Shown piece after piece: positions 334 through 23,103 of a DNA stretch of 64,000 nt. Source of the DNA: a virus; the IMG/VR virus record IMGVR_UViG_3300046455_000317, positions 3,003-67,002 of that record; one strand, 5' to 3'. The notes under the pieces were generated by a model that ran no database searches, was not told the origin of the DNA, and worked only from the letters and a program-made list of their open reading frames with translations. The translations under genes and the position numbers were made by a program. Every line of letters begins with the position of its first letter. The first letter of the stretch is position 1.

Positions 334-534
334 TCATTTACGCTCAACTTCTTCGGCGCGTGGTCCTTTGGCTGGGGTGGTTGGCGTGAACTCCACGGTG
401 TCCCCAACGTGGACCTCGTTGAAGTCTTGGTTGTCTTTGAAGGCGGAGCGATGGAAGAAATACTCTGTCCCATCGGCTCCCAGAAGGAACCCAAACCCTT
501 TGTCGCCCATCACTCGGAGGATTTTGCCGGTCAT
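334..534 (-). CDS. Cold-shock domain protein
   Basis: KGFGFL, YFFHRSA, GDTVEF, KGPRAEEV; 66 aa canonical CSD. Confidence 0.92.
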   Translation of the reverse strand: MTGKILRVMGDKGFGFLLGADGTEYFFHRSAFKDNQDFNEVHVGDTVEFTPTTPAKGPRAEEVERK

Positions 535-773
535 TTGTTATTGGTCTCCTTCATCCGTTCCCTGAGACGGTGTTGGATCTCCGCGTTGAGATACCATGCC
601 GCCTTCTGTAAGTCTTCGATGTCGTCCACGCCTGGCTTCCGCCCAGCGCGGCAGATATACTTCGTGGCGTTCCCCAAGTGGTAGTTCAGCTTCCAGGCGC
701 GGACCACCTTCTGGTGCTCGTATGGATCCTCGCCACCGCCGTAATGGGCGGGATGGTTCACCGTCTCGCTCAT
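531..773 (-). CDS. DUF3310 family protein (T7 gp1.7-like putative nucleotide kinase)
   Basis: VNHPAHY, GNATKYICRAGRK, EDLQKAAWYL; start moved to 773 (ATGA overlap with upstream stop). Confidence 0.85.
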   Translation of the reverse strand: MSETVNHPAHYGGGEDPYEHQKVVRAWKLNYHLGNATKYICRAGRKPGVDDIEDLQKAAWYLNAEIQHRLRERMKETNNK

Positions 774-1756
774 CGCATCCTCCGGGCAAACCACTCTTGG
801 CCCGCAATGACCCAGTCATTCTTCTTGTCGAGGGTACACGCCAGTTTGTAGGCGTCATCCCGTTTGTCGGCCTTCCAGAGACTATGGGCGCGCAGAAGCC
901 CATAGGCCACGTTGAAGAACGGCTCACTGTCGTCCCATTCCATTATGGGCTCGAAGTGGTGGTCCGCTGCGAACAGGAGACTCTCGATGCGGTGGTCGGC
1001 ATTCTCGACATCCCCATGGAACATCTGGGCTGGGGTGACTTCCTTCTCGTATGGGTTCGCCCCAACAAACCGCTGATCCCGGTAGCGTTCGACGGTGTTG
1101 AGGTATCCGTGCCAGTTGACGCTAATCTGGGTATAGGTTCCAACCTTGCACCCAATCCAAAGCGCCATGTATTCGAGGAGCATCGAGAAGTGGACGGCGT
1201 TCGCCCCATACACTCCCCAGACGATGTCGTTGGACCGACAGAAGACCACGAGGTTGAGTTCACCCGCCAGTCCGCGCTGGAATGTCGCGACGACGTTACA
1301 CGGCACGTCCTTCCCCGTGTGCCCCAAGTCGGCCGTGGCGTCCCACATCTGGAGGACGCATCGCCGGTCATCTGGGTTGTTTGTGAGACCCTCGACAATC
1401 CCAGTCAGCTGGTCGCCGCCTGGGAAGTAGTGGCGCCATCGTCGCCCATACGCCCCATGGAAGATGATTCCATCGTCGGAGAAGTTCGCCATGTTCTTCG
1501 CGTATTTGACGACACCGGCGACATCGGCTCTCCCAGCGAGCATCCAGAGGGACTCATACAGATGGAAGTATGGGTTGGCGTCCCTCTGGGGCCAGAAGAT
1601 CACCCGCTCGGACGGGTGGGAATACACGGTCGTCACCGGCCCAGGCGCAACGAGCACCGGCCCATTCCGACTGTCTCTTGGGATGCCCTCTTCCCAGAGG
1701 TATTCGAGTGCCTTGGGGAAGGCATCGTGGACGTTCCGGGCGTGGATGGTTTTCAC
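770..1756 (-). CDS. Thymidylate synthase-family enzyme, probably dUMP hydroxymethylase
   Basis: Catalytic DVPCN, RSNDIVWG..GANAVHF (Asn typical of dUMP-specific enzymes), NWHGY; hypermodification gene context. Confidence 0.85.
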   Translation of the reverse strand: MKTIHARNVHDAFPKALEYLWEEGIPRDSRNGPVLVAPGPVTTVYSHPSERVIFWPQRDANPYFHLYESLWMLAGRADVAGVVKYAKNMANFSDDGIIFHGAYGRRWRHYFPGGDQLTGIVEGLTNNPDDRRCVLQMWDATADLGHTGKDVPCNVVATFQRGLAGELNLVVFCRSNDIVWGVYGANAVHFSMLLEYMALWIGCKVGTYTQISVNWHGYLNTVERYRDQRFVGANPYEKEVTPAQMFHGDVENADHRIESLLFAADHHFEPIMEWDDSEPFFNVAYGLLRAHSLWKADKRDDAYKLACTLDKKNDWVIAGQEWFARRMR

Positions 1757-2268
1757 TTCAGTCCCACTTCGGTTTTCAGCCGGTTGATTTCCTCCACCAA
1801 CGCTTGGATCTTGGCTTTTGCGGTTTCCACCCGGTCGATAAGAGTGCCTGCCTGGGGAGTTTCAGCGTTGGTTTCGGCTTTGGGCGTTTTCTTTCTCTGG
1901 GCTTTGGTAACTGGCCGAGGAATCCATCCATTATCCCAAGCCCGTTCTCTCATATCCTTCCCCCAAATCGTGGCCTTTCCACGGATAGGGTCTTTCCCAT
2001 AGGTCACGGCGTTCAGCGCGCGGTGTCGATACACCCCAACAGAGGCTCTGGCTTCCTCGACATCGATCCACCACGTCTCGTTGCCTCCTGGGATCTGCGT
2101 AACTGTCCCTGGGCGACAATAGCTATGGAGCGTCTTGGTTGCCGTTGTCCTGGTCGTGGACCCCAAGAGAGGCAGTAACAGGTTGACCCGGATCTTCCCA
2201 TCTACGATGGCGAGAGAATCGAACGGGTCTGGAACTTCGAACAAGAGTGGCGCAGTTGCTTCGCTCAT
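1753..2268 (-). CDS. Hypothetical protein with C-terminal coiled coil
   Basis: ORF with GGAG RBS and overlapping start/stop codons. Confidence 0.6.
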   Translation of the reverse strand: MSEATAPLLFEVPDPFDSLAIVDGKIRVNLLLPLLGSTTRTTATKTLHSYCRPGTVTQIPGGNETWWIDVEEARASVGVYRHRALNAVTYGKDPIRGKATIWGKDMRERAWDNGWIPRPVTKAQRKKTPKAETNAETPQAGTLIDRVETAKAKIQALVEEINRLKTEVGLK

Positions 2269-2399
2269 ACATTCTCCTTCTTGGATTTGGCTTCCTTGGC
2301 TTCCAGCTTCCCCAGGCACTTGAGGCAGATCCGGTCATCCTTCTTGTTGGGGATGAAGTGGAACTTGGCCTTACAGCACTTACAAACGGCGATAATCAT
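2265..2399 (-). CDS. Small Cys-rich (Zn-ribbon-like) protein, 44 aa
   Basis: Manual translation MIIAVCKCCKAKFHFIPNKKDDRICLKCLGKLEAKEAKSKKENV; ATGA overlap with next gene. Confidence 0.55.
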   Translation of the reverse strand: MIIAVCKCCKAKFHFIPNKKDDRICLKCLGKLEAKEAKSKKENV

Positions 2400-2409
2400 A
2401 CATTCACTT

Positions 2410-2649
2410 TCATTCTTTCACTTCTTCCACGTTTTGCCAAAGAATGTCGAGACATTCCCCAGAGGGCAACAAGAACGGAAAGAATCTATCTGGTTGTGAA
2501 CGACCCCAAAACCCTCGAAAACCCTCTGGGCCTTCAATCCCTATTGTTCCCACGACATACTCAGAACGGTATCTGGTTAGATCGACAGTTAGTCGATACT
2601 TTGTTTTGAGCCGTCGTTGTTCCATTTCTTCCCACATTCCTTCACTCAT
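2410..2649 (-). CDS. Hypothetical protein
   Basis: Fills the gap in a tightly packed operon; start MSEGMW. Confidence 0.5.
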   Translation of the reverse strand: MSEGMWEEMEQRRLKTKYRLTVDLTRYRSEYVVGTIGIEGPEGFRGFWGRSQPDRFFPFLLPSGECLDILWQNVEEVKE

Positions 2650-2653
2650 ACAT

Positions 2654-3619
2654 TCACCCTCTCCCGTTGAACTTCGCCCTGGGCTCACCTTCCCCAAAGA
2701 GCACCCGGCAGTATTTGTCGAACTCACAGAGCGAGTGCTCGATGTCGCGCATCTCCAAGGCGGGTAACGCTTGGCCTTTGAAGATGTCTGGCTCTGGGCT
2801 TCCAGCCCACCCAAGCGTTTGCCCGTGGGTGAGGAGTTCTCGCATCGACGCGATGGCGGTCTTGTTCGTATGGGGCAGTCCCAGACGCTGCAATCCGCGC
2901 AACGCCCCAGGCCCAGGGTTCGCCCAGGTATAGATGTCGGTGGCGTCTTCGAGCAGTTGGGTATGCCGCATATCGGTTACCATCTCGTAGGCCATAAAGC
3001 CGCCCACGCAATGGACTGTCGTCAGGACGTTGAATGTCGCGGCCAGACTACGGTGGACCCTCGCGGTATGGGCGATCTTGTCCCTGAGCCCCCAGAGGTC
3101 CGTGCAGACTTGGACGATGGCTTCGATCTTCGATATCCCAGGCGGTGAGTAGACGATATGGGCGCCAGTGAAAACCTGCTTCTTCTCGTACAGCCGCTGT
3201 TCGAGGATGCGTTGGATAACGAGTGGGGTCCAATCGATCTGCCACCCAAGGAACGCGCCGGTGCCACACCAGTTAAACATTCGATACCAACCGATGTTGA
3301 ACGCGAGGAGTTCCAGATTGCGCTTCCCATATGGGCAGTCGCAAGGAATGAACTCCAGGCCTTGCCCGCCGATGGCGCCTTGGGAAGCGCACGAATCGGT
3401 ATGGGTGGCAGCGTCCTTGTGCGGCTCCAAGAAGTTCTCACGGAGCCATACCGTCCCACGGTCATTCTCGCGGAACGGGTTGGTGAACTTATAGTCCAGG
3501 AGGATGGGGTCAGTCGTCCACGGCTTGGGCTGTCCCGCCTGCCGGCGGAGATAGATGGCGTGGCGCTCCGCGATCCAATACCAGAATCGGTCCTCAGTGG
3601 ATTGGGTCAGATCCGCCAC
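2654..3619 (-). CDS. aGPT-Pplase1 family protein (helical domain associated with 5-hmdU DNA kinases)
   Basis: ERHAIYLRR..PWTTDPIL..YKFTNPFRENDR, GGFMAYEMVTD, GPGALRGL, DIEHSLCEFDKY. Confidence 0.85.
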   Translation of the reverse strand: MADLTQSTEDRFWYWIAERHAIYLRRQAGQPKPWTTDPILLDYKFTNPFRENDRGTVWLRENFLEPHKDAATHTDSCASQGAIGGQGLEFIPCDCPYGKRNLELLAFNIGWYRMFNWCGTGAFLGWQIDWTPLVIQRILEQRLYEKKQVFTGAHIVYSPPGISKIEAIVQVCTDLWGLRDKIAHTARVHRSLAATFNVLTTVHCVGGFMAYEMVTDMRHTQLLEDATDIYTWANPGPGALRGLQRLGLPHTNKTAIASMRELLTHGQTLGWAGSPEPDIFKGQALPALEMRDIEHSLCEFDKYCRVLFGEGEPRAKFNGRG

Positions 3620-3785
3620 GGAATGCCTCCTCCCATCTTTTCATTTCCGCTTCTACGCGCTCAATTTTGTCTTCCAACTCCAACAGACGGTTGATGACGA
3701 CCTTCACCAACTCCAAGACAGAACGATCATTTTCAACCGATCTTTGGGCCACTTCCTCCAACGCTTTCACGATATCGTCAAACAT
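3594..3785 (-). CDS. Small coiled-coil protein
   Basis: MFDDIVKALEE... heptad pattern; GGAGG RBS upstream. Confidence 0.5.
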   Translation of the reverse strand: MFDDIVKALEEVAQRSVENDRSVLELVKVVINRLLELEDKIERVEAEMKRWEEAFRGGSDPIH

Positions 3786-4347
3786 TCGTTCCCTCCATCT
3801 CATCCCCAAGGCACGTCCATCCGATACGCTGGCGCCGCGCAAACAACTCGCAGTATGGGCCGTCCACGAGGTGCTCGACAATGTCGTAGAATACGCTGGG
3901 CTTCTCCGAATGCCGCCCCACGCGAGCAGCGAACACCGACCCATCGATGATCTCTACCCCATCGGTCGTGGTAAACGTGGACCGAATCGAATTGGACTTC
4001 ACCAACGGCGTCCCACGTGTCGCGATGAGACATACCTCGTGTTCCATCCGGACCTGTCGCCCCATCCCGAAGTGGCGGTTGCCGTTTACCGTCTTCTTCA
4101 ACCATACCATCTCCGCCTTGGGAACGAAACCCCAAGCCCGGATGACAGCTAGTGCTTCCTCCTGCATCGACGCCACGCGCCAGAGGAACAGGTGGGCCTC
4201 ATAGGCCAACTCTGGGAGTGGGAACGAACAGATGTCTCCCACACTCATCGTTCGATAATTCTTGACGGCTCCTCGTGTTGGGCCTGGGAGCTTGTCCCCA
4301 AAGGACCACCCTGGGTCCGCCACGAGGACACGAAAGCGTTCGCCCAT
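3778..4347 (-). CDS. MT-A70 family adenine methyltransferase
   Basis: VLVADPGW (DPPW variant), LFLW, GMG..R..HE.CLIATRG, HSEKP, ELFARR..GW..LGDE. Confidence 0.88.
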   Translation of the reverse strand: MGERFRVLVADPGWSFGDKLPGPTRGAVKNYRTMSVGDICSFPLPELAYEAHLFLWRVASMQEEALAVIRAWGFVPKAEMVWLKKTVNGNRHFGMGRQVRMEHEVCLIATRGTPLVKSNSIRSTFTTTDGVEIIDGSVFAARVGRHSEKPSVFYDIVEHLVDGPYCELFARRQRIGWTCLGDEMEGTNV

Positions 4348-4766
4348 TAGTTTGGCCTCACAAACTCTTTCGAGCCTTGGCGAAGCTCTCTGAATTCGAG
4401 GAGCCCATGGCTGGCCTGGTCGTCGGTCAAGCCCAGCTTCTCGGTGAGAAACCGATAGACGATTGTGTCTGAGACGGCGGCTTCAATCGCCTGCCCCAAC
4501 ATCTGATGGATCTCACGAGCCTTGTCTAAGTCCCACTGGGACATCTCACTATTCAGTGAGAACTCAATCATCCCACGCTTCGTGCGCCCAGAGATAATCG
4601 TGGAGAACGCGATGTTGTCTGAACGCAGTTCGTCGTGCCGAGCGTGCTTGAGGCGGAGATGCCCCATCAGCGCCTTGGCGATGTAGGACCGAATTAGATC
4701 CTCATCTTGCTTCCCAAGGGATTGTTTGACGTTCCACTCACAGAGCGGGCATTTGGCTTCGATCAT
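4347..4766 (-). CDS. Hypothetical protein with N-terminal C2H2-like motif
   Basis: CPLC...HLRLKH; coupled to neighbours. Confidence 0.55.
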   Translation of the reverse strand: MIEAKCPLCEWNVKQSLGKQDEDLIRSYIAKALMGHLRLKHARHDELRSDNIAFSTIISGRTKRGMIEFSLNSEMSQWDLDKAREIHQMLGQAIEAAVSDTIVYRFLTEKLGLTDDQASHGLLEFRELRQGSKEFVRPN

Positions 4767-5005
4767 TTCTTCCGCTCCAACTCCTCGGTGACGATCCCAT
4801 CATACCGGGTGAAGTAATCCTGGAATGACCGCTCCAATGTCTTCCGATTGATGGGGTCAGCGGTCTGGTAAAGTTTGGCGAGTTGCTTCACGAAGCTGCC
4901 GCCATACTTCCCCATCGCTTCGAGGATGTCCCATATGGGGTGTTGGAACGGCGTGTTATCGTCTTCAAACCCACGGTTCTCTGCGGCGTAGTCGAGTTCA
5001 CCCAC
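4763..5005 (-). CDS. Hypothetical phage protein
   Basis: YGGSFVKQLAKLYQTADPIN; operon packing; GTG start inferred. Confidence 0.55.
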   Translation of the reverse strand: MGELDYAAENRGFEDDNTPFQHPIWDILEAMGKYGGSFVKQLAKLYQTADPINRKTLERSFQDYFTRYDGIVTEELERKK

Positions 5006-5558
5006 GGGCCACCCCCAACGCTTCGGCCACCATCTCGAATGCCGCTTCACGATCCAAGAACCAGGCATCCAGCCCGGCGTCCTTCAATCGGTTGATGGTG
5101 CGCTTATGGCGAACCGCTCTGGCCTCGGTGTTCTTGGGGTCCAATGGGCGAACGTCACCGCGTGCGTCGCGTCTGGCCTGGATCCCGGCGATGCAGATGG
5201 GTATGGGAGTCGTCAGGCCGATTACCAGAACCTTGAAACCCTTGCGATGGAGTTCGACGCACCGTTTGGTATCGTCGCTTACCATAATGCCCTCATAGAG
5301 GACATCGCATCCTTCCAGCGCCGACTGTTCGACCAACTCATACACGGTGTCGGTCTTCGTGATGGTATCGGTCCCACCGCACGGCGTCTCGTAGTGCCCC
5401 AGGACAGTTAGTGTCCTCCCATCGTGGGGCAGCGTATAGCTTATGGGCTGCTTGCGACCCTCGATGAAGTTGGGTGTCTTGTTGGGGCAGAGGTCCATAA
5501 TCCGTCGAACCACGGTGGACTTCCCGCTCCCAGATGTTCCTCTCAGATTCACAATCAT
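4998..5558 (-). CDS. P-loop kinase of the thymidine-hypermodification cluster
   Basis: N-terminal Walker A RGTSGSGKST, GGTDTI, VLYEG; cluster context. Confidence 0.8.
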   Translation of the reverse strand: MIVNLRGTSGSGKSTVVRRIMDLCPNKTPNFIEGRKQPISYTLPHDGRTLTVLGHYETPCGGTDTITKTDTVYELVEQSALEGCDVLYEGIMVSDDTKRCVELHRKGFKVLVIGLTTPIPICIAGIQARRDARGDVRPLDPKNTEARAVRHKRTINRLKDAGLDAWFLDREAAFEMVAEALGVARG

Positions 5559-5577
5559 ACGTTCCTTCCTCCGGACG

Positions 5578-5607
5578 ATTCTACTATGGGGCACTCCCAG
5601 AAAGCAA
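5578..5607 (-). promoter_or_regulatory. Putative sigma70-type internal promoter (TTGCTT-N18-TAGAAT)
   Basis: Read on the minus strand in the short gap upstream of the kinase. Confidence 0.4.
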
Positions 5608-5615
5608 CCCAGATT

Positions 5616-6164
5616 TTAACTGTCGGTCAACCCGCGATAGCAGGTCAGAAACGCTTCCTTGGATTGTCTCCACGACCAAGGCATCCACGCGCCGATACGT
5701 GCCCGCTCATCGAGGGAGACAGGCGGATAGTTGGGGAGCTTCATCAGCCAATCGTTCCAGACTTTGAGCCCATAACCTTCTCCACCCTCGAACCGGAGCA
5801 TCAGTTTGTCGGCGTAGGCCACCTCTGGGGTCATCTCCTCCGGGCACCCATACTTCTGGTAGATGATCCGTTGGAGCTTGTCTTCCACGTCCCGGTAGTG
5901 CCCCAGTTCTGGGCTCTCCTTGAGCCACTTCGTCATGTCCCCAAGGTATGCCTCGGAGGCATCGTGAAGCAAGCCTTGGAGACTGTCCGACACCCTCGCC
6001 ACGTAGACGGAGTGTTGGGCGACGGTAATGGGACGTTTGGTATGGCCGGCGAACCGATTGCAGCACGCCAGCCCATGGGCGATGTCTTCGAGGGTGATGT
6101 CGTCCGGTTTGGGGTCAAACAGGTCGATGAACTTCCCAGAGAAGGTCAGGATAACGGGCTTCAC
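5616..6164 (-). CDS. HD-domain 5'-deoxynucleotidase-like phosphohydrolase
   Basis: EDIAHGLA..NRFAGH, VAQHSV, LLHDASEAYLGD, AD..ML..E. Confidence 0.88.
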   Translation of the reverse strand: MKPVILTFSGKFIDLFDPKPDDITLEDIAHGLACCNRFAGHTKRPITVAQHSVYVARVSDSLQGLLHDASEAYLGDMTKWLKESPELGHYRDVEDKLQRIIYQKYGCPEEMTPEVAYADKLMLRFEGGEGYGLKVWNDWLMKLPNYPPVSLDERARIGAWMPWSWRQSKEAFLTCYRGLTDS

Positions 6165-6772
6165 GGTTTCTTCCCCACGATATGGACTTCTCCGCCGTGG
6201 AAGGGATGTCTCTGGGTATGGACGATTACCAACCCCATAGCGGCCCACTTGTCTCGCCATCCCGCTTCATCGAGGTGGTTCAAGTGGGCTGGCTCATTGT
6301 CTATCGCCATGTTGGGCGTTACGTGGGCGATGTATCCTCCGGGCTTCGTCACCCGGAGGATTTCACGCATCCCAAGGTCCAGGTCGCCCAGATGCTCCAT
6401 CACGTGCCTGGAACAAACGAGGTCAAAGGTCCCAGAGTAGTAGGGCATTCGTTCCACGAAGCCATTGTGGACGATCAACCCACGCTTCTGGGCTTCCGTC
6501 ACCAACGGCTCATACAGATCGATCCCAACGATACGGCCACCTCTCCGGAGCCACTCTGCGAGGAGACTCCATTGGCCCCCAGAGGCAGAGCCGAGTTCCA
6601 GAATGGCTTCTCGTTCAGCCGGAACGTGTCCCAAGAGCGCACGATACGACTGGTCGTCAGTGGCGTCGCGGGATGCGATGCTCCCATCGGCGGTCAGGTC
6701 TGCTCGCATCTTCGCCATACGGCGATGGTGGTCGTAGTTCAAGTCACGAACACGTTCTAGTGGTATCGGCAT
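6161..6772 (-). CDS. Class I SAM-dependent methyltransferase
   Basis: ILELGSASG, IVGID, FDLVCSRHVMEH, EILRVTKPGG. Confidence 0.88.
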   Translation of the reverse strand: MPIPLERVRDLNYDHHRRMAKMRADLTADGSIASRDATDDQSYRALLGHVPAEREAILELGSASGGQWSLLAEWLRRGGRIVGIDLYEPLVTEAQKRGLIVHNGFVERMPYYSGTFDLVCSRHVMEHLGDLDLGMREILRVTKPGGYIAHVTPNMAIDNEPAHLNHLDEAGWRDKWAAMGLVIVHTQRHPFHGGEVHIVGKKP

Positions 6773-6784
6773 GGGGCGGTATCC

Positions 6785-7003
6785 TCAGCTGGCGCGTCGT
6801 CGTTTCTCTGGGAGCGCGAAGTCAGGCTGCTCCTTGATCCCAAAGGCATCGGCCAGGATCTTGGAGATGACCCACGAGGGACGGACACGATGGGTGTCCG
6901 CCAGTTCGCGGACCATGTCTCGAATCTCTGGGATGAGGCAGGAGAGGATGGGCTCACGCCCACCCTTCAGCGGCGGCTGGCGCCTGTATTTGAGTTTACC
7001 CAC
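6785..7003 (-). CDS. Small putative DNA-binding (RHH-like) protein
   Basis: Basic; strand-helix-helix pattern IPEIRDMVRELA..PSWVISKILADAF. Confidence 0.45.
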   Translation of the reverse strand: MGKLKYRRQPPLKGGREPILSCLIPEIRDMVRELADTHRVRPSWVISKILADAFGIKEQPDFALPEKRRRAS

Positions 7004-7241
7004 GGCGCACCTCCTGTTGCAGAATGGCGATTGTGAGCGTGATCTGGTCCCGGCGCTGGCGAAGGAGCTTGATGATGCCGCCCACGCTGGCATGGGTGCC
7101 GTTCTTTCGCTCGTGGGCGACAGCCTTCCCCACGATCTTATGGGCGCGTGTCTTCTTCCTCCGCTTCGCCCAAGCAGACTTCTGGATCACGCTCATCTTC
7201 TCCTTGCCTTCTGGTGTTTGGGTCCAATGTGTCTTACTCAT
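6996..7241 (-). CDS. Small basic hypothetical protein
   Basis: HWTQTPEGKEKMS..AWAKRR; AAGGA RBS. Confidence 0.55.
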   Translation of the reverse strand: MSKTHWTQTPEGKEKMSVIQKSAWAKRRKKTRAHKIVGKAVAHERKNGTHASVGGIIKLLRQRRDQITLTIAILQQEVRRG

Positions 7242-7414
7242 TCATTCCTTCTTTCATTCACTATGTTAGTGACGGACGGCCCCACCACCGCACCCGTCTA
7301 CGAGGATCTCCAAACCCATCGAAAGTGACTTCATCCTCGTGCCTCGGCTGAGTTGCCCCCAGAGAAAACCCACCCAGAACCCTGGAAGCCCACGGTCACT
7401 CGTGGCGATGCCAT

Positions 7415-8812
7415 TTACACCGAGTGAAGTGTTATCGTCTTGGACTTCACCCATGGGTTGCGGAAGTCAGGAAGACGGAGCGCCTTGGCAGCCGTCAACG
7501 TCTCACTTCCACAAAGTGACTCCTCGTGGCCGTCACCGCACCGGAGACACCCGGACGGCGGGCATATTTCCATCTCTGCGAACTGAGTTGCCTCCTTGGA
7601 CTTCTGGAACATGGGAACGCGATGGCCGTGGCATTGGTCGGCGGTCAAAAACTCCGGTCCCATCGACTTCCAGAGGCCACCAGGCTTCTGGGTATACTCG
7701 TAGCACAGCGCGTAGGTCATCCCAAGCGACATGGCCTTCTTCTGGTATCTGGCGTGTCCCTCGCGCCGATACGATTCCACGACGGTCTTCTGGCCGCCGC
7801 ACTGGTTCTCGACAAACAGTTCTTTGAACCGATCGGAGCGTGGCCCAGGGAACTTCTTGGCGATTCTCTCAACCATTGCTTTCGCCCAAGCGTGCCCGGC
7901 TTCCACGAATTTGACGATGACGTGGTCCACGCCGTTGGCGGCCAGCTTCTCAAACAACTCCTCGACATCGTCGTGGGTCACGACCCCAGGGATTATGGGG
8001 TTGCACTGGATGGAAACGTAGATGCCGGCGTCGTGGAGTTCCTTGCACTCTGCAATGGTTTGGTCGAGGGTGATGGCCCCAGGCGACAGCCGGTGCCACG
8101 TCTCTGGGTCTGGGGTATTGATCGACTTCTGGGCGTAGCTGTACTTGTTGAGGCGGAGAAGGTCATACGCCCAGTCTGGGTAGGACAGGCGCGACAGGAA
8201 GAAGATCGGCAGCCCAGCGTCCACGAATGCTTGGGCGCCACGCTCCGTGTTATGGTAGTATTCCTCCAGAGGGAGGAATGGATCCGTGAAGCTGGAGAAG
8301 TAACCAGCCGTGGAGACTTGCATCGACTTCAGCTGCTTCCGGACGTGCGCCCCATAGTCGGTGGGGACGGTAATCAATCCGCTCCCACGATACCCTCGAC
8401 TGCCGGAGTTCACGTAGCAGAACGCGCACCCCACGGAGCACCAGCCCCCATAGGGTTGGGTCAGAATCGCGTCTGTCTCACATGGGCGGTCCCTCTGGCC
8501 CTGTTGCAGCCCATCGTTCTTGGACGAATACCAGCCCTGAAGATCCTTCGCCTTCTCCAAGCGAAGATGGGGGAATGGTTCGAGGAAGACCACGACATCC
8601 TTCATGTTCTCCTCCAGCGCCCCACGGACCATTCCGATCTTGGCCGTCCGCTGGAGAATCTCCCGATTGGTAACCGGATCGTGCTTCCGCTCGATGGGCC
8701 CAAGGAAGTCTCGCATATCCGGGTCCACTTTCATGAAGTGTTGGTATGCGGTCTTCGTTGGGGAGTTGTCGTCGTCATCCTCCAAGTTCAGGAGGTCAAT
8801 CTCACTTTGCAT
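7415..8812 (-). CDS. Radical SAM enzyme (SPL-like), candidate DNA base isomerase/modifier
   Basis: CSVGCAFC (CxxxCxxC), SSFTDPF, NPIIPG; Cys-rich C-terminus; hypermodification cluster. Confidence 0.85.
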   Translation of the reverse strand: MQSEIDLLNLEDDDDNSPTKTAYQHFMKVDPDMRDFLGPIERKHDPVTNREILQRTAKIGMVRGALEENMKDVVVFLEPFPHLRLEKAKDLQGWYSSKNDGLQQGQRDRPCETDAILTQPYGGWCSVGCAFCYVNSGSRGYRGSGLITVPTDYGAHVRKQLKSMQVSTAGYFSSFTDPFLPLEEYYHNTERGAQAFVDAGLPIFFLSRLSYPDWAYDLLRLNKYSYAQKSINTPDPETWHRLSPGAITLDQTIAECKELHDAGIYVSIQCNPIIPGVVTHDDVEELFEKLAANGVDHVIVKFVEAGHAWAKAMVERIAKKFPGPRSDRFKELFVENQCGGQKTVVESYRREGHARYQKKAMSLGMTYALCYEYTQKPGGLWKSMGPEFLTADQCHGHRVPMFQKSKEATQFAEMEICPPSGCLRCGDGHEESLCGSETLTAAKALRLPDFRNPWVKSKTITLHSV

Positions 8813-8999
8813 CTTTCACTCCCAGTTCTTCATCTGAGACCCATATGGTTGCCTCGACAAACGCCCCATCGAGGGTTGGGGCCACGTAAGCCGTTGGAGC
8901 CACACGGATGCCTCCCAAGTTAGCCACGCGCTGAGCCGCCTTCTCACGATATTGTTTCCGCCGTTCTTTGTCGGTCTGGCGCTTGTCGTAGATCGTCAT
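8802..8999 (-). CDS. Hypothetical protein
   Basis: Coupled small ORF. Confidence 0.5.
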   Translation of the reverse strand: MTIYDKRQTDKERRKQYREKAAQRVANLGGIRVAPTAYVAPTLDGAFVEATIWVSDEELGVKDAK

Positions 9000-9838
9000 T
9001 GGGCTCCTATGTGGGACATCTCATTCGCGGCCCATCCAGCGGCGATGCACCCGAATTTGCCCGCCCCAACAGCTACCCATATCCGCTCGTTGACCTGCGC
9101 TAGCAGGCACGGTTTCCGCCCAGACAGATCGAATGACCGAAGCCCTTCACGGATCTGGGTGGGACCGTCTGTTCGCCCCATTGCGGCTTGGATCCGGAGC
9201 TTGGACTGGATCGTTCGCTCATCGGTCCAATTCTCTGGCTTCAGGGCGGAGCCGTCTGCCGCCCATATCTCCGTGGGCGTAATGTTATGGACGGTGACCT
9301 GCTTGTATGGGGCCCAAGTCTGGACGAACGGATGCTCCACCTGTCCGGAGAACCGGAAGCTGACCCCATGCTTCGCCGTCAGCTGAATCTCTGGGATGAG
9401 TCGCATCGTTCCCATACCGGCGGCAACCACGAGGAGCCGGCAGGTCTCCATGATTTCGATCCCATGCTTTATGTAGTGGACCGTTGGGAAACCTGTTCGC
9501 TCTCGGATCCACGAGTCGTCCACTTCTTCGTGGGGTGACCCATAGACACGGTCCATTCCAATACGCCAGACATCCCTTTTCAGAATGTCTCCGCTGGGAT
9601 GAATCTGGAATGTCTCCTTGGTAAGCCCAAACAGGGTGTCGAGGGTATCCAACATGGGCTTTTCCTCATCCTTGGGAAGCCCGGTCAGTGGAGATGGTTT
9701 GACGCTTCCTCCGCATGGGCCGGTCCCAGAGAGTGGACGATGGCTGTCGAGCACTAGGGTGTCTCGCCCTTGGAGCCGGAACATCCCGGCGATGGACGCG
9801 CCCACCACTCCGTTGCCGATGACGATAGCGTCTCTCAT
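8996..9838 (-). CDS. FAD-dependent oxidoreductase (DAO/glycine oxidase-like)
   Basis: N-terminal Rossmann AIVIGNGVVGASIA, VVAAG, C-terminal GLR..GAGKFG; start moved to 9838. Confidence 0.85.
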   Translation of the reverse strand: MRDAIVIGNGVVGASIAGMFRLQGRDTLVLDSHRPLSGTGPCGGSVKPSPLTGLPKDEEKPMLDTLDTLFGLTKETFQIHPSGDILKRDVWRIGMDRVYGSPHEEVDDSWIRERTGFPTVHYIKHGIEIMETCRLLVVAAGMGTMRLIPEIQLTAKHGVSFRFSGQVEHPFVQTWAPYKQVTVHNITPTEIWAADGSALKPENWTDERTIQSKLRIQAAMGRTDGPTQIREGLRSFDLSGRKPCLLAQVNERIWVAVGAGKFGCIAAGWAANEMSHIGAQ

Positions 9839-10041
9839 TTGGGATTTCCTAGTGTGGCGAGTGCACGCCCAAACTTCGCCAAGTCTTCCCCAGTTAGATT
9901 CTGGACGAAGTGAAGACGGATGAGCCCATCCACCGGGATTTCCAAAAGAATGTCGCCGCATTCCGGTGGAAGGTTGAAGCCTTCGTCTTTCAACGCTTGG
10001 TAAAGGTTGGGCGGAAAGTGGTAGTAAGCAGAAAGGCTCAT
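9835..10041 (-). CDS. Hypothetical protein
   Basis: ATGA overlaps on both sides. Confidence 0.55.
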   Translation of the reverse strand: MSLSAYYHFPPNLYQALKDEGFNLPPECGDILLEIPVDGLIRLHFVQNLTGEDLAKFGRALATLGNPK

Positions 10042-10898
10042 CCCATGTTCTCCCTGAGATGCTCTAGATTGTTGGTCCCCACGATGGGCGTTACATGGTT
10101 GTCCTTACACCATTGGAGGATCTGCCGCCGTTCCGCGATGTCCCGGCCTTGCCCCAACGGGCTATGGGCCATCACCGCAACGTTCATCGCGCGGAAGAAA
10201 GGGAGCACCCCAGCGAGCCCATCCAGACGGACCTGAATCGACGCCAATCGAGGGCAGGTGAGACGGGCGGTGTAGAATTGGTCCACGCTGAAGTTACACA
10301 CGCCCACGTAATCGGCCTTGTCTCCCAACAGGTCATTCAGCGCCGCCATTGTTCCCTCGATGGGGACATTGGCGTTGGGCCAGTGGATTTGGAACAGCCC
10401 CAAAGGTCCGCCCAGATTGTAAACGCTCCGAGACGCTGCCCGGAGGACATTCGTGTAGGTCATATGGTTCCGGCTGACCTTAGTGGCGATCCGGATCGGC
10501 GCGTTCTTCCCCAAGACCTCCCCAAGTTCCTTCTCCACGCGCCCATACCCATACGTCTCAGCGGTATCGATCAGCGTGACGCCCAAGCCCATAGCCTCTT
10601 GGGGTAGTCTGGGATCGTATTTCCACCCATAGCTTCCCCAACCGGGACGGGTGGAGAGCGTCAGTGGAACCGTGCATGGGACCGCCACTGTTTCTCTGGG
10701 GAGTTCCCTGAGACGGCGGATGGCGCGACTTCGCGCCTGCTCTTTCATCTGGGACGTGGCGGCGGTGAAGGCTTCGCGCCAGTGGGCTTCATAGAGCGAC
10801 CCATGGACGGCATTGCGGGCGAGGGCCAAGACTTCCTCTGGGACCTCCCCATCTTTGCCCTCCAGGTAGTCAGCGGCGGCACCGAACGGAATTATCAT
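10038..10898 (-). CDS. Aldo/keto reductase with N-terminal extension
   Basis: Tetrad motifs IDTAETYG, IATKV, FQIHWP; VGVCNF; AHSPLGQG. Confidence 0.88.
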   Translation of the reverse strand: MIIPFGAAADYLEGKDGEVPEEVLALARNAVHGSLYEAHWREAFTAATSQMKEQARSRAIRRLRELPRETVAVPCTVPLTLSTRPGWGSYGWKYDPRLPQEAMGLGVTLIDTAETYGYGRVEKELGEVLGKNAPIRIATKVSRNHMTYTNVLRAASRSVYNLGGPLGLFQIHWPNANVPIEGTMAALNDLLGDKADYVGVCNFSVDQFYTARLTCPRLASIQVRLDGLAGVLPFFRAMNVAVMAHSPLGQGRDIAERRQILQWCKDNHVTPIVGTNNLEHLRENMG

Positions 10899-11090
10899 TC
10901 ATTCTCCTAGCTGGAACTCAACGTAGTCACTGACGATTACCAACGCTTCCCCATAGCTCCCAGCGCAAAAGACGCGTGTCGCCATCTCCTCTGCCTTCTC
11001 TTTCTGGCCGGCCTTTCGGAGTGCTTCCTTGGCAGCGGCCAGAACCGCGAAGATGTTCCCATCGATGGGGCCTTTGACGATGGGCCTCAT
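10899..11090 (-). CDS. Small hypothetical phage protein
   Basis: DGNIFAVLA..ALRKAG..SYGEAL pattern. Confidence 0.6.
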   Translation of the reverse strand: MRPIVKGPIDGNIFAVLAAAKEALRKAGQKEKAEEMATRVFCAGSYGEALVIVSDYVEFQLGE

Positions 11091-11944
11091 TGGGCTTCTC
11101 CTCCAGGTGTCGCGTCATACAGACGTTCCGCCGTGGCTGAGTATGGGGCCCACTCCGCCAACCCCATCCGAAGTTCAATAGAGTCATACCCGATGGGGTA
11201 TGCGTAGTTGTTATGGGACTTCCACTTACAGAGGATGGTCTCAATCTCCTGGATCCCAATCGGCCGTTTTCGGTCTGGCGGAGCCATCGCACCTCGGAAG
11301 GTCACCAACAGTTCCTTGGCGACTTTCGCCACCGCGATCTTCTCTGGGGTTTCTGCGTTGTAGCTTGGGGACAGCTTCCACTGGATGAGGGCGGATTTGT
11401 AGGGTTGGTCGTACATCATGACCTCGGTGTCTCCGAAGTCTATGGGAATCCCCATCACTCGCTCCAACATATCTGCCGCCTTGAACGCGATCCATGGGCC
11501 GAACTGGGGAATGGAGATCGCCCGTTCGCGGATGGTGGTAAACTTCGGCGCACCACTTATCAAGAAGTCCACCGCTACCTCTGGGCGTTTATAGACATTG
11601 GAGAATATCTCGGTGGACTCGATGGCTTTCTCCCCACGCCAATGCCGGCGCTCATGGCCTCTGGGCCATCGCCCTCCCATCGGTGTTGGGGACGTGTTGG
11701 ACGCCATGATCTTGAAGAAGTACCAGTAATCGTCCCCAGTATGCTCGCTCAGCCAGCTGGAGACGCCGGCATTGTAGCAACACCAATAGGCGAACAACCA
11801 ACGCTTCAGTTGCTCGCGCTCCAACGCAGCCCCAGCTAACGCGATGTAGAGTGGATCCAGATCGCCGGTGCGAAGGAGATAGTTCCCAAACTCCTCAATG
11901 TTGGGTAGTCGATGGTTCCGATCCATCCTCGTCAATAGGGTCAT
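11087..11944 (-). CDS. Amino acid:DNA transferase (aGPT-Pplase2 family)
   Basis: GDLDPLY, RWLFAYWCCY, RGHERRHWRG, FGPWIAFKAADMLER, QEIETILCKWKSH. Confidence 0.87.
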   Translation of the reverse strand: MTLLTRMDRNHRLPNIEEFGNYLLRTGDLDPLYIALAGAALEREQLKRWLFAYWCCYNAGVSSWLSEHTGDDYWYFFKIMASNTSPTPMGGRWPRGHERRHWRGEKAIESTEIFSNVYKRPEVAVDFLISGAPKFTTIRERAISIPQFGPWIAFKAADMLERVMGIPIDFGDTEVMMYDQPYKSALIQWKLSPSYNAETPEKIAVAKVAKELLVTFRGAMAPPDRKRPIGIQEIETILCKWKSHNNYAYPIGYDSIELRMGLAEWAPYSATAERLYDATPGGEAQ

Positions 11945-12089
11945 TCGTGCCTTCCATCTCCTTCTCCAGCATTTCAAAGATGAGGATTGAGACAGACTTG
12001 CCTGTCTCCAACCGTCTCTGGCGGAGATAGTCTTTGACTGGCTGGGTTACATGGGCCGCGATGTAGACGTTACGATCTGAGGTTATCAT
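11895..12089 (-). CDS. Small RHH-like DNA-binding protein
   Basis: VYIAAHV..VKDYL..GKSVSILIFEML. Confidence 0.45.
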   Translation of the reverse strand: MITSDRNVYIAAHVTQPVKDYLRQRRLETGKSVSILIFEMLEKEMEGTNDPIDEDGSEPSTTQH

Positions 12090-12465
12090 GGTCGTGGACC
12101 TTTCGGATCAGTTCAACTACCCAACGATGGTTGAACCCGCTCACCGTCTCCTTTGCTGATTGCCATTCACTCATTCCCTGGGGAGAGACCACCAGCGTCC
12201 GTTTGGAGCCGCTGTTCTCATCCCATATGATATACCGCGCATGGCTATGGTTCGCCAGACGCAGCATCGTCAACTCTTGAATCCCTTGGGACTTGAAGTT
12301 TGGATTCGCGTGCTTCCCTTCCCACCACGATGTAACTCCGTTCCCAGTAACGGAGAGGTCAGGCACCCCAAAGAGGTGGCGATCCTCGTGGCGGAATATA
12401 ACATACCCTGGAAACGCTTTTCGGACAAGAGTTACCAAAGCTGACTTGAGAGTTGCCTCGGTCAC
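12070..12465 (-). CDS. VRR-NUC / PD-(D/E)xK nuclease (resolvase-like)
   Basis: MTEATL, GVPDL, WEGK, Q. Confidence 0.75.
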   Translation of the reverse strand: MTEATLKSALVTLVRKAFPGYVIFRHEDRHLFGVPDLSVTGNGVTSWWEGKHANPNFKSQGIQELTMLRLANHSHARYIIWDENSGSKRTLVVSPQGMSEWQSAKETVSGFNHRWVVELIRKVHDHDNLRS

Positions 12466-12656
12466 TCCTCCTCCAGATATTGGTTTGGCGTCCCATAATC
12501 CAAGGAGCCTTGCGACTTACAGCGCCGACACTTGGCCTCTCGCCAGTTGTCTGTCTTCTGTCCCTCTGGGGACTTCATGGGCTGGACGTGGCCGCATTCC
12601 TGGCACGTCCTGAGCCAATCAGTCGCTTGGAACCGTGGGTCGCGGAGTTTCATCAT
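12462..12656 (-). CDS. Small Zn-ribbon protein
   Basis: CQEC...CRRC. Confidence 0.55.
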   Translation of the reverse strand: MMKLRDPRFQATDWLRTCQECGHVQPMKSPEGQKTDNWREAKCRRCKSQGSLDYGTPNQYLEEE

Positions 12657-12991
12657 CTGACGAACGTCCCAGTGATTCGTTGAAGCCCAGGCATGGTTCG
12701 CCGGAACTCATCTTGGGCGCTAGAGATATCGACCACTTGGCGGTCTACCTTCAGATCGACCAACAGCCCCACGGAGACGAATTGGCCCGCTGGGTCCTTC
12801 ATGTAGACCTCTGGGCGGTCCCACGCTGGGAGATGCTCTGGATGCCCTGGGCGGCCGATTACCATTCTGGGGTCGATGGACGCCAGCGCCTTGAGCGTCG
12901 TGACTTCCTCTGGGGATGCGATCTGGACCAGCGCCGTCGTGGCCGCTGCCATACCCACGAGGGTGCCTTTCAGGAAGTTGCGGCGGTCCAT
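12653..12991 (-). CDS. Protein with twin-arginine (Tat)-like signal peptide
   Basis: MDRRNFLKG followed by hydrophobic stretch TLVGMAAATTAL. Confidence 0.65.
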   Translation of the reverse strand: MDRRNFLKGTLVGMAAATTALVQIASPEEVTTLKALASIDPRMVIGRPGHPEHLPAWDRPEVYMKDPAGQFVSVGLLVDLKVDRQVVDISSAQDEFRRTMPGLQRITGTFVR

Positions 12992-13060
12992 TATTGCTTC
13001 CTCCGAATCAGGTAGTAAACGCCCAAGAGCGCCAGCCCATAGACCAAGCTGAAGGCAGAA

Positions 13061-14161: not shown

Positions 14162-14417
14162 TCCGTCTCCGTTTCTGATAATCCATGACCCCGTCCCGCA
14201 TGAACGTGAGTCGAATCTGCTCGATATGGGGAAGCCCAGACCACTCCCCATCCGTCATCTTTCGCATCTGACCGTCGTCTTCCATCACAAGCCAACAGAA
14301 GCAGGCAACGCAAAGAATCAAGACCCCAGGTTGGGGCTTTCCGGTCCCAGTCAGCGCGTCATGGGCTGCCCCACAGACCGGGCATGAGTGGTCTCCACGA
14401 GTGGTCTGGACGCCCAT
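14154..14417 (-). CDS. Small Zn-finger protein
   Basis: CPVC...CVAC. Confidence 0.55.
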
Positions 14418-22840: not shown

Positions 22841-23103
22841 CGTTTCTCCTATGGGATGCCCTTGGGGCATGTTTCCGCGCGTATAGAGTAGCGCGGTTAA
22901 AAACTCCGCCGCAACCTCTACCGGAACTGACGTCAGTTTGTTGGGACTTGCGCGGTTTTTATCTTTCCGGTATCCTATCCGGCTCCCATACGTACCCATA
23001 GAAATCGGTTTCGGAGGTGCCCCATGCCATCCAATTGTGACTCTGTGAAAGAGATCCCTGCTCTGGTGTCTGGTCGGAGCGACCAGTCAATGGAGCAAGC
23101 AGC

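Follow-up and report, generated by a model that had tools for sequence, protein, structure and literature searches.

The window, a stretch of 64,000 nucleotides (positions 3,003 to 67,002 of IMG/VR record IMGVR_UViG_3300046455_000317), carries a tightly packed thymidine hypermodification operon on the minus strand. The uncultured phage genome has 67,002 bp with 127-bp terminal repeats. The original prediction had named nine gene types: a dUMP-hydroxymethylase-like thymidylate synthase (TS), aGPT-Pplase1, a P-loop kinase, an HD phosphatase, an amino acid:DNA transferase, an SPL-like radical SAM enzyme (rSAM), an FAD oxidoreductase, an aldo/keto reductase (AKR) and a class I methyltransferase (MTase). 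This observation was confirmed, as all nine are present at the predicted place. An MT-A70 gene was not on that list. The gp numbers below are proteins of the phages M6 and PaMx11; L numbers denote the loci and contigs used for comparison.

Table. Features of the operon (window coordinates) with their sequence support.
Position	Strand	Assignment	Support
770..1756	-	TS-family enzyme, presumed dUMP hydroxymethylase (makes 5-hmdUMP)	PF00303, E 5.8e-19; over the full length 45% identical to M6 gp58 and 49% to PaMx11 gp51; hydroxymethylase activity inferred from these relatives
1753..2268	-	Unknown ORF, 171 aa from the ATG at 2268 with a good ribosome-binding site; stop overlaps the TS start	No Pfam, PHROG or NCBIfam hit; ESM Atlas gave only sub-threshold helix-turn-helix-like leads
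2410..2649	-	Small unknown ORF, 79 aa from the ATG at 2649	No family hit
2654..3619	-	5-hmdU DNA kinase helical-domain protein (formerly aGPT-Pplase1)	PF18723, E 9.7e-47; 35% identical to M6 gp55
3778..4347	-	MT-A70-family methyltransferase-like protein, probably separate from the thymidine pathway	PF05063, E 3.4e-20; 58% identical homologue at the same place in L014/L015/L018; motif DPGW where L014 has DPPW
4347..4766	-	Unknown ORF, 139 aa	No family hit
4763..5068	-	Unknown small ORF, start uncertain; overlaps the kinase stop region	No family hit; 46% identical homologue in L006
4998..5558	-	P-loop 5-hmdU DNA kinase (5-HMUDK), start at the ATG at 5558	Weak Pfam match (PF18748, 21.9 bits, below its cut-off); 44% identical to PaMx11 gp49 (E 5e-48), 30% to M6 gp54; Walker A motif GTSGSGKS
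5616..6164	-	HD-type dNMP phosphatase-like enzyme (nucleotide-pool remodelling, inferred); likely GTG start overlaps the MTase stop	No Pfam hit; phrog_318 dNMP phosphatase, E 2e-46; H...HD motif; homologues in the syntenic relatives L013 and L014
6161..6772	-	Class I SAM methyltransferase; membership in the pathway doubtful	PF08241, E 3.1e-16; best NCBIfam hit BioC-like, far below its cut-off
6785..7241	-	Two small unknown ORFs (about 6785-7003 and 6996-7241)	No family hits
7415..8812	-	SPL-like rSAM, predicted N-alpha-GlyT to C-alpha-GlyT isomerase	PF04055; phrog_9252, E 4.9e-182; 58% identical to M6 gp53 (E 5e-172); cluster motif CSVGCAFC at residue 125, as in gp53, plus a C-terminal Cys group
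8802..8999	-	Small ORF, 65 aa, function unknown; overlaps the FAD stop and the rSAM start	
8996..9838	-	gp47/NGTO-type flavin amine oxidase with a remodelled base pocket; the longest ORF (to 9961) probably starts at the ATG at 9838	DAO match at 27.6 bits, just under the cut-off; 33% identical to PaMx11 gp47 over the full length; only PDB matches 8z2o and 8z79 (E 2.6e-38 to the solved gp47 structure)
10038..10898	-	AKR of a subfamily found only in viral or metagenome contigs, with an N-terminal three-helix extension	PF00248, E 7.1e-28; catalytic tetrad D111/Y116/K140/H172 invariant in 16 sequences; model pLDDT 90.2, pTM 0.90; Foldseek matches AKR structures at probability 1.0
10899..11090	-	Small unknown ORF, 63 aa, between the transferase and the AKR	
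11087..11944	-	Amino acid:DNA transferase, predicted to be glycine-specific	PF18724, E 3.3e-18; 42-43% identical to M6 gp51 and PaMx11 gp46

The operon holds homologues of every characterised step up to the rSAM isomerisation of glycinyl-thymidine of the M6 type. For the transferase, all glycine-binding and catalytic residues of gp46 are conserved, and 11 of the 12 active-site and pocket residues of gp46 that were checked. The exception, K261, also varies in M6 gp51.

No PLP enzyme or GNAT acetyltransferase is detectable. The original prediction had noted this for the window, with a search of the remaining genome as a check; it holds for the whole 67,002-bp genome, for which CheckV lists a completeness of 80. 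Searches by tblastn with M6 gp52, the Bhz59 PLP enzyme and PaMx11 gp48 gave only noise or nothing. Six-frame Pfam searches for PF00291, PF02784, PF00282, PF00155, PF00583, PF13508 and PF13673 gave 0 matches at E <= 1, whereas the same searches detected these families in 12-14 of 14 control genomes. Custom HMMs for PLP enzymes and acetyltransferases also gave 0 hits in the genome.

The slot of the PLP decarboxylase is occupied by AKR and FAD enzyme. The closest syntenic relatives, L013 and L014/L015/L018 (rSAM 71-74%, polA about 50% identical), have the order polA-u131-transferase-PLP-rSAM. The genome studied here has polA-...-u131-transferase-AKR-FAD-rSAM. Of 11 rSAM-bearing viral loci, 10 have a gp52-like PLP gene near the rSAM, and the eleventh contig begins inside the rSAM gene; L014, L015 and L018 are near-identical to each other. 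The rSAM tree (19 rows) shows the exchange of PLP and FAD+AKR at least twice. The rSAMs of this genome and of L024, both linked to FAD+AKR, are sister to the PLP-linked L013 and L014 (support 100/99), and L031 (FAD+AKR) pairs with L020 (PLP; support 98/98). Only 2 of 516 alignment columns separate the two rSAM groups. Both lie in the variable C-terminal tail, and 142 columns are invariant.

The neighbourhood is not due to chance, and AKR and FAD enzyme recur together with the rSAM in independent lineages. L024 has AKR (68%), FAD enzyme (74%) and rSAM (89%) in the order of this genome. L029 and L031 have rSAM-transferase-FAD-AKR followed by TS, without a PLP hit in the DNA retrieved. Of 20 viral loci with this AKR subfamily, 20 have an SPL-like rSAM within one or two genes, 8 have the FAD gene adjacent, 1 has a PLP enzyme and 0 have an acetyltransferase. 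The number of independent cases is lower than these counts, because the loci include duplicates: the contigs of L110 and L029 are equally long, as are those of L115 and L043; L113 is close to L031; L117, L118 and L121 give identical values, as do L128 and L129. PLP and AKR are not strictly exclusive, as shown by L026 (rSAM-AKR-PLP) and L124 (FAD-AKR plus PLP). No published description of an AKR in such clusters was found, although the Figure 2 image and the supplements of Lee et al. 2021, which were not covered, may already depict such contigs.

The flavoenzyme differs from gp47 in the base pocket. PaMx11 gp47 oxidises the glycine N-C-alpha bond, and R242 is proposed to bind the carboxylate. 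The FAD enzyme of this genome keeps the residues equivalent to Y180, Q182, R242 and K268, including the carboxylate Arg and the DNA wedge Tyr, but has Pro in place of W51. Trp51, which stacks on the flipped base in gp47, is present in 6 of 6 FAD homologues from AKR-less phages and absent in 12 of 12 AKR-linked rows. The Arg is conserved in all 18 rows, which shows only that the FAD substrate still bears a carboxylate.

The best explanation is an M6-type post-replicative pathway in which the PLP decarboxylase has been replaced by a flavin amine oxidase plus an AKR. The TS-like enzyme would make 5-hmdUMP, which is incorporated as 5-hmdU, with the HD phosphatase helping to remodel the nucleotide pool. 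The P-loop kinase, with its helical-domain partner, would phosphorylate 5-hmdU in DNA. The transferase would replace the phosphate with glycine, giving N-alpha-glycinylthymidine, and the rSAM would isomerise this to C-alpha-glycinylthymidine, an alpha-amino acid attached to the base. The gp47-like enzyme would then oxidise the C-alpha-N bond. Because the carbon skeleton is now bonded to the base, hydrolysis of the imine would release ammonia and leave a 2-oxo acid on the DNA. Reduction of the 2-oxo group by the AKR with NAD(P)H would yield 5-(2-carboxy-2-hydroxyethyl)-2′-deoxyuridine, with a calculated nominal nucleoside mass of 316. The known bases are 5-hmdU, N-alpha/C-alpha-GlyT (315), 5-NmdU (257) and 5-NedU (271); the product is probably a DNA base not yet described. 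The gene content, the slot replacement, the co-occurrence and the residue patterns are results of the sequence comparison. The steps up to the isomerisation rest on homology to characterised enzymes, whereas oxidation and reduction are inferred from gene replacement, co-occurrence and residue patterns, and catalysis and the identity of the base remain predictions. This reading is about as likely as not. AKRs more commonly reduce aldehydes and ketones than 2-oxo acids, and gp47 itself acts on N-alpha-GlyT, so that its homologue might do the same and compete with the rSAM.

The interpretation in the original prediction, glycyl-T isomerisation, oxidative deamination to a keto acid, reduction to a hydroxy acid and methylation, was partly supported. 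Comparative evidence supports an M6-type pathway with a finishing chemistry that differs from both known routes and fits the order up to the hydroxy acid, but the final methylation is not supported. Homologues of the class I MTase (51-67% identical) are located in 7 viral contigs, none with an rSAM, transferase, kinase or TS gene within about 8 kb. None of the 20 viral AKR loci carries an MTase of this family. Together with the two small ORFs beside it, the MTase gene forms an insertion of about 1.25 kb relative to L013, where rSAM and HD abut. The only argument for a role is its position inside the operon. The MTase is probably a mobile passenger, and its participation in the pathway is unlikely.

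A branched, MnmC-like route is an improbable alternative. The FAD enzyme may work as in PaMx11 on N-alpha-GlyT and give 5-aminomethyl-dU plus glyoxylate. The class I MTase may then make 5-methylaminomethyl-dU, as MnmC does on tRNA, while the rSAM makes C-alpha-GlyT in parallel and the AKR merely detoxifies glyoxylate or has another side role. The DNA would carry mixed modifications. The full-length homology to gp47 with the retained residues and the overlap of the MTase stop with the HD start agree with this route. Lee et al. 2021 compare gp47 with MnmC1 and title a section on phages tolerating mixed modifications. However, the loss of Trp51 in the AKR-linked rows and the unrelated contexts of the MTase homologues speak against it. 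The AKR follows the rSAM rather than the FAD gene, and FAD-bearing cultured phages have no AKR: a tblastn search of the phage collection with the AKR hit only 10 records, none of them a hypermodification phage, and PaMx11, Ab18, Epa5, Sonora, Simon and RHph_TM26 have none in the stretches examined. PF05430, the MnmC-type MTase domain, is absent from the genome.

A decarboxylating variant is equally improbable. The 2-oxo acid may lose CO2, either spontaneously or driven by the H2O2 that the oxidase produces, and the AKR would reduce the resulting aldehyde to 5-(2-hydroxyethyl)-dU (calculated mass 272). Alternatively, oxidative decarboxylation would give 5-carboxymethyl-dU (286), which the MTase could esterify (300). 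The comparative evidence is the same as for the hydroxy acid. AKRs typically prefer aldehydes, and 2-oxo acids are decarboxylated by H2O2. The combination of AKR and PLP enzyme in L124 and L026 would fit a decarboxylation followed by amine oxidation and aldehyde reduction, and the best, though weak, NCBIfam hit of the MTase is to the carboxyl O-methyltransferase BioC. Yet no decarboxylase of any searched family is encoded in this genome, and non-enzymatic decarboxylation on DNA is speculative.

The AKR may also be a partner of the rSAM, with a separate role for the FAD enzyme. It might reduce a carbonyl or imine generated by the rSAM reaction or act as a dehydrogenase, and the product would differ from the proposed hydroxy acid. 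This is suggested by the 12 of 20 viral AKR-rSAM loci without FAD gene. In the four low-GC loci in which all four genes were compared (L043, L112, L117, L127), the block comprises a second rSAM (CEADCxHC motif; hhalign 97.9% against the rSAM core), an ORF of roughly 240 aa without family match in the FAD slot, the AKR and the SPL-like rSAM. L122 has the FAD gene in the slot of this ORF. The custom HMMs found no transferase, kinase or TS in the low-GC loci. This explanation is unlikely: in the M6-type clade the rSAMs linked to FAD+AKR cannot be told apart from the PLP-linked ones, PLP-linked systems including M6 itself work without any AKR (Lee et al. 2021), and FAD and AKR genes are adjacent in every locus that has both.

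Inactive passengers are the least likely reading, in which AKR, FAD enzyme and MTase have no function and C-alpha-GlyT or N-alpha-GlyT is the final base. No direct evidence supports it. The ORFs are intact and show coding-type GC3, the catalytic residues are conserved, and the stop/start overlaps point to translational coupling. The module recurs across contigs with GC from 0.32 to 0.66.

The phage genome is a 67,002-bp virus record with 127-bp direct terminal repeats. Genes from about position 23000 of the window down to position 1, and on into the 3 kb outside the window, lie on the minus strand. Searches against Pfam, PHROGs and NCBIfam, together with direct comparison to annotated reference phages, confirmed the observation: every gene type named in the original prediction is present. 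An MT-A70 gene and several small unknown ORFs are interspersed. Stop/start overlaps link the FAD enzyme to a 65-aa ORF, that ORF to the radical SAM (rSAM) enzyme, and the methyltransferase (MTase) to the HD-type phosphatase, so the block is tightly packed. A promoter and terminator scan of 500-13200 gave counts at or below shuffled expectation and supports no claim. By its DNA polymerase, the phage is far from any cultured phage, with 27% as the best identity, and the phage collection contained no near-identical DNA.

Coordinates of the modification genes of the phage and of further features on the record and on related loci (handles starting with L)
Feature	Sequence	Coordinates	Strand	Matches
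Thymidylate synthase (TS)-family enzyme	window	770-1756	-	PF00303; 45% identical to M6 gp58
5-hmdU-kinase helical-domain protein	window	2654-3619	-	PF18723, E 9.7e-47
MT-A70-family protein	window	3778-4347	-	DPGW motif
P-loop kinase	window	4998-5558	-	44% identical to PaMx11 gp49, 30% to M6 gp54; Walker A motif
HD-type dNMP phosphatase	window	5616-6164	-	
Class I methyltransferase	window	6161-6772	-	Methyltransf_11
SPL-like radical SAM enzyme	window	7415-8812	-	58% identical to M6 gp53; CxxxCxxC motif at residue 125
FAD enzyme	window	8996-9838	-	33% identical to PaMx11 gp47 over the full length, E 4e-40; PDB 8z2o and 8z79, E 2.6e-38
Aldo/keto reductase (AKR)	window	10038-10898	-	D111, Y116, K140, H172
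Amino acid:DNA transferase	window	11087-11944	-	42% identical to M6 gp51, 43% to PaMx11 gp46
112-aa ORF	window	12653-12991	-	Twin-arginine signal, PF10518, E 6.2e-06
396-aa ORF	window	13061-14251	-	Collagen triple-helix repeats, PF01391, E 5.9e-29
SNF2-family helicase (527 aa) and RNase T-type exonuclease (340 aa)	whole record, outside the window	710-3312	-	
rSAM gene with Hint/intein domains	L117	10937-11929 and the adjacent 11926-13770		PF07591, E 1.2e-19; PF14890, E 3e-17
TS-like gene in two pieces	L016	13693-15579 (13693-14334 and 15007-15579)		
MTase homologue followed by GT4-type glycosyltransferase-like gene	L008	6817-8040		Weak Pfam matches (glycosyltransferase-like gene)
MTase homologue followed by GT4-type glycosyltransferase-like gene	L010	884-2230		Weak Pfam matches (glycosyltransferase-like gene)
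ORF downstream of the AKR-rSAM block	L112	13208-13966		LPG_synthase_C, E 0.0011
ORF downstream of the AKR-rSAM block	L127	13630-14403		LPG_synthase_C, E 0.016

The closest characterised systems are the 5-NedU pathway of Pseudomonas phage M6 (gp51 transferase, gp52 PLP decarboxylase, gp53 rSAM isomerase, gp54 kinase; Lee et al. 2021, PMC8989533) and the 5-AcNmdU pathway of Pseudomonas phage PaMx11 (gp46 transferase, gp47 flavin oxidase NGTO, gp48 acetyltransferase; PMC8989533, PMC11472151). With M6, the phage shares the TS-like enzyme, the kinase with a helical-domain protein, the glycine-type transferase and the rSAM isomerase homologue. The gene order relative to polA differs from M6. Both M6 gp51 and PaMx11 gp46 transfer glycine. 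The residues described for gp46 (PMC11472151), including the catalytic Cys and the glycine-binding Asp, Trp and Lys, are conserved: D41, W162, K166, E246, T247 and C250 align with gp46 D24, W146, K150, E243, T244 and C247. The cluster motif of the rSAM sits at the same residue as in gp53, and a C-terminal Cys group could hold a second cluster. With PaMx11, the phage shares the transferase, the kinase and the FAD enzyme, whose only solved relative is gp47. PaMx11 lacks an rSAM and an AKR.

The finishing enzymes of both pathways are missing. M6 gp52 belongs to the PALP family and PaMx11 gp48 is a GNAT. A tblastn search of the whole genome with gp52, the Bhz59 PLP enzyme and gp48 gave only noise or nothing; gp48 produced no row at E <= 10. 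Six-frame Pfam searches for four PLP families (PF00291, PF02784, PF00282, PF00155) and three GNAT families (PF00583, PF13508, PF13673) gave 0 matches at E <= 1, whereas control searches detected these families in 12-14 of 14 genomes. HMMs built here for the PLP enzyme and the acetyltransferase also gave 0 hits. CheckV lists the completeness of the record as 80 despite the terminal repeats, so a small residual doubt remains. The 3 kb outside the window encode the helicase and the exonuclease, which continue the minus-strand gene block beyond the left edge.

A scan of IMG/VR with the rSAM gave 11 loci. In 10 of the 11, a gp52-like PLP gene lies within about 2 kb of the rSAM; the eleventh contig starts inside the rSAM gene. 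Three of these loci, L014, L015 and L018, are near-identical to each other. The closest relatives of the phage, L013 (rSAM 74%, polA 52%) and L014 (rSAM 71%), read polA-u131-transferase-PLP-rSAM-HD/kinase-helical domain-TS. The phage reads polA-...-u131-transferase-AKR-FAD-rSAM-[two small ORFs + MTase]-HD-kinase-...-helical domain-TS. AKR and FAD therefore stand exactly where the PLP decarboxylase stands in the relatives. The MTase with two small ORFs is a separate insertion of about 1.25 kb at a junction where rSAM and HD abut in L013. In locus L016, about 670 bp separate the two pieces of the TS-like gene, suggesting an intervening element such as an intron, intein or homing endonuclease.

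The AKR has 65-76% identical relatives and a wider family at 30-42% identity. The family shares an N-terminal extension and an Asp-Tyr-Lys-His tetrad, assigned by AKR motifs and invariant in an alignment of 16 sequences. The AKR differs from the superfamily in this three-helix extension of about 65-85 residues and in a shortened C-terminus. An AlphaFold2 model predicted the (alpha/beta)8 barrel with confidence (pLDDT 90.2, pTM 0.90). Foldseek matched it at probability 1.0 and a TM of about 0.6 to many structures of the AKR superfamily, which includes 2,5-diketo-D-gluconate reductases and perakine reductase. The subfamily was found only in viral or metagenome contigs. In 185,579 species-representative genomes, only 6 distant AKRs without the extension were found, which gave no clue to the host. 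A tblastn search with the AKR revealed no isolate with the AKR-FAD-rSAM trio in the 50,697-record phage collection. A complex prediction for AKR and FAD returned a score of 0.00, which is not evidence either way.

The AKR is a recurrent partner of the rSAM. A metagenome scan retained 80 loci of 214 relatives. After tblastn over all 80 and HMM searches over the best 20 (L024-L043), an rSAM was present beside the AKR in 9 of the 20 and a DAO-type FAD gene was adjacent in 5 of the 20; the remaining loci are short contigs or have distant AKRs without the extension. L024 repeats the order AKR-FAD-rSAM of the phage at 68%, 74% and 89% identity. L029 and L031 read rSAM-transferase-FAD-AKR followed by TS, with no PLP hit in the DNA fetched. 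Scans of viral contigs with the single AKR and FAD sequences found nothing, but an IMG/VR scan with the AKR alignment yielded 20 loci. By HMM search, an SPL-like rSAM is located within one or two genes in 20 of 20, the FAD gene is adjacent in 8 of 20, a transferase is present in 3 of 20, PLP in 1 of 20, and an acetyltransferase or an MTase of the family in the phage in 0 of 20 each. Some loci are duplicates: L110 appears to duplicate L029, and L115 appears to be the same contig as L043. L117, L118 and L121 give identical values, as do L128 and L129.

The replacement happened more than once while the rSAM stayed the same. A maximum-likelihood tree was built from 19 rSAMs, leaving out L015 and L018, which duplicate L014, and the short fragment of L026. 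The phage and L024 grouped with the PLP-linked L013 and L014 (support 100/99), and L031 grouped with the PLP-linked L020 (98/98). A comparison of 10 PLP-linked with 5 FAD+AKR-linked rSAMs of the M6-type clade showed disjoint residue sets in only 2 of 516 columns. Both are located in the variable C-terminal tail, with no common residue in the AKR group, and 142 columns are invariant. The rSAM therefore most likely does the same job, and PLP and FAD+AKR are alternative ways of processing its product.

The FAD pocket changes with the gene context. In the gp47 structure, W51 and K268 flank the flipped base, Y180 is the wedge, Q182 reads the base and R242 is the likely carboxylate binder (PMC11472151). 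In an alignment of 18 FAD homologues, W51 is present in 6 of 6 from phages without an AKR in the stretch examined (PaMx11, Ab18, Epa5, Sonora, Simon and RHph_TM26). It is replaced by Pro, Ala, Thr or Arg in 12 of 12 AKR-linked rows, or 10 rows after merging two probable duplicate pairs; the phage has Pro in place of this base-stacking Trp. Y180 and R242 are conserved in all 18. The FAD enzyme of the phage is closer to gp47 than to the L029-L031 type (20-24%), thus the same positional change is seen in two divergent FAD lineages. Rhizobium phage RHph_TM26 was considered as a cultured phage with FAD and rSAM. It has FAD, transferase, kinase, helical domain and TS, but no rSAM or AKR in the 22 kb examined. 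Together with Stenotrophomonas phage Sonora and phage Simon, it carries the gp47-type FAD enzyme with the transferase, kinase and TS, without acetyltransferase, rSAM or AKR in the stretches examined. These phages may stop at 5-aminomethyl-dU.

gp47 oxidises the N-C-alpha bond of the glycine adduct. Hydrolysis of the imine then releases glyoxylate and leaves an aminomethyl group on the base (PMC8989533, PMC11472151). After the rSAM step, C-alpha would be bonded to the base and the nitrogen would be a free primary amine. The same oxidation would then release ammonia and leave a 2-oxo acid on the DNA. An AKR is the natural enzyme to reduce that carbonyl. The predicted base is 5-(2-carboxy-2-hydroxyethyl)-dU, with nominal nucleoside masses of 315, 315, 314 and 316 along the route; the first value is published and the others were calculated. 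The original prediction of a route by glycyl-T isomerisation, oxidative deamination, reduction and methylation is supported in part. The comparative evidence is strong that rSAM-FAD-AKR is a functional tailoring module, whereas the specific product is a reasoned prediction held with moderate confidence. The hydroxymethylase rather than methylase activity of the TS homologue, rSAM activity, NAD(P)H-dependent carbonyl reduction by the AKR and the chemistry of the route are inferred.

Some observations weaken this route. Of the 20 viral AKR-rSAM loci, 12 have no FAD gene, and L026 and L124 combine the AKR with a PLP enzyme. The AKR may therefore serve the rSAM in a way not yet understood, or the route may include a decarboxylation. 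An AKR acting as a glyoxylate reductase on the by-product of the FAD enzyme was rejected, since FAD-bearing cultured phages lack the AKR and the AKR tracks the rSAM instead.

The cluster also resembles MnmC of tRNA wobble-uridine modification, in which the FAD domain converts cmnm5U to nm5U (PMC8989533). The MTase domain of MnmC converts nm5U to mnm5U. In both cases, a glycine-oxidase-type flavoenzyme for a glycine adduct at C5 of uracil is encoded with a SAM methyltransferase nearby. However, the MnmC-type methyltransferase domain (PF05430) had 0 matches in the genome at E <= 1, while the control search detected the family in 10 of 14 genomes. The MTase of the phage is a generic Methyltransf_11 protein. 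Its best NCBIfam hit, BioC, is far below the cut-off, and PDB sequence matches are weak. Homologues with 51-67% identity sit in 7 viral contigs, between an unidentified 505-aa ORF and a portal gene, beside glycosyltransferases, beside another methyltransferase, or beside a C5 DNA methylase and an exonuclease. None has a hypermodification gene within about 8 kb. The directly following glycosyltransferase-like genes in L008 and L010 hint at a different, non-DNA role for this MTase family. An MTase-like ORF between AKR and rSAM in locus L034 is unrelated to the MTase of the phage (E 5.7). Membership of the MTase in the pathway is unlikely, though not excluded.

Lee et al. (2021) mention metagenomic combinations of rSAM, PLP and flavin enzymes. 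Their main text contains neither 'aldo' nor 'reductase', although their Figure 2, which together with other figures and supplements was outside this survey, may already depict such contigs. In the literature surveyed (including Wen et al. 2024, PMC11472151; PMC13458397; PMC11946847; PMC12686479; PMC11955845), full-text searches revealed no paper with both AKR and hypermodification terms, and among the thymidine-hypermodification papers since 2022 that were surveyed, no title or abstract was on this route. Papers of 2021 and 2026 list rSAM isomerase, PLP decarboxylase, flavin lyase and acetyltransferase as tailoring enzymes; an AKR would be a fifth class. The characterised thymidine hypermodifications reviewed here carry amine or amide side chains (5-NedU, 5-NeOmdU, 5-AcNmdU, putrescinyl- and diaminopropanyl-thymine), and the glutamyl-thymine of SP10 also carries carboxylates. 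A hydroxy-acid side chain with no nitrogen would add a chemically different base, which would likely interact differently with restriction enzymes, glycosylases, polymerases and sequencing chemistries. It is possible, though somewhat less likely than not, that the AKR-rSAM(-FAD) module defines a widespread, unrecognised family of phage DNA-base tailoring systems, which in this phage converts DNA-borne C-alpha-glycinylthymidine into a previously unknown alpha-hydroxy-acid thymidine, 5-(2-carboxy-2-hydroxyethyl)-dU, possibly methylated. This would be the first aldo/keto reductase, and the first amino-acid-oxidase-type deamination, known to act on a nucleobase within DNA.

The AKR-rSAM pairing also points to low-GC phage systems whose target is entirely unknown. 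The viral contigs L112, L114-L121 and L125-L127 (GC 0.32-0.45) share a conserved block of a second rSAM (about 350 aa, CEADCxHC motif), an unknown ORF of about 240 aa, the extended AKR and an SPL-like rSAM. No transferase, kinase or TS was detected by the HMMs within 10 kb. The first two genes were verified in L112, L117, L127 and the metagenome locus L043. The second rSAM matched the rSAM core in hhalign at 97.9%. The roughly 240-aa ORF occupies the FAD slot; Pfam gave no family for it, and hhalign against the cluster families found nothing. In L117, the rSAM gene carries Hint/intein domains. Downstream of the block, ORFs in L112 and L127 give weak matches to the aminoacyl-transferase fold LPG_synthase_C.

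Within the window, a 188-aa ORF gave only sub-threshold helix-turn-helix-like leads in the ESM Atlas. The ORF with collagen triple-helix repeats lies inside the replication/modification gene block, but was not selected by the GC3-based gene call and may not be a real gene. The twin-arginine signal match is unusual for a gene between a polymerase and DNA-modification genes. The MT-A70-family protein has DPGW where its 58% identical relative in L014 has the canonical DPPW, and may be a variant or a weakened adenine methyltransferase.
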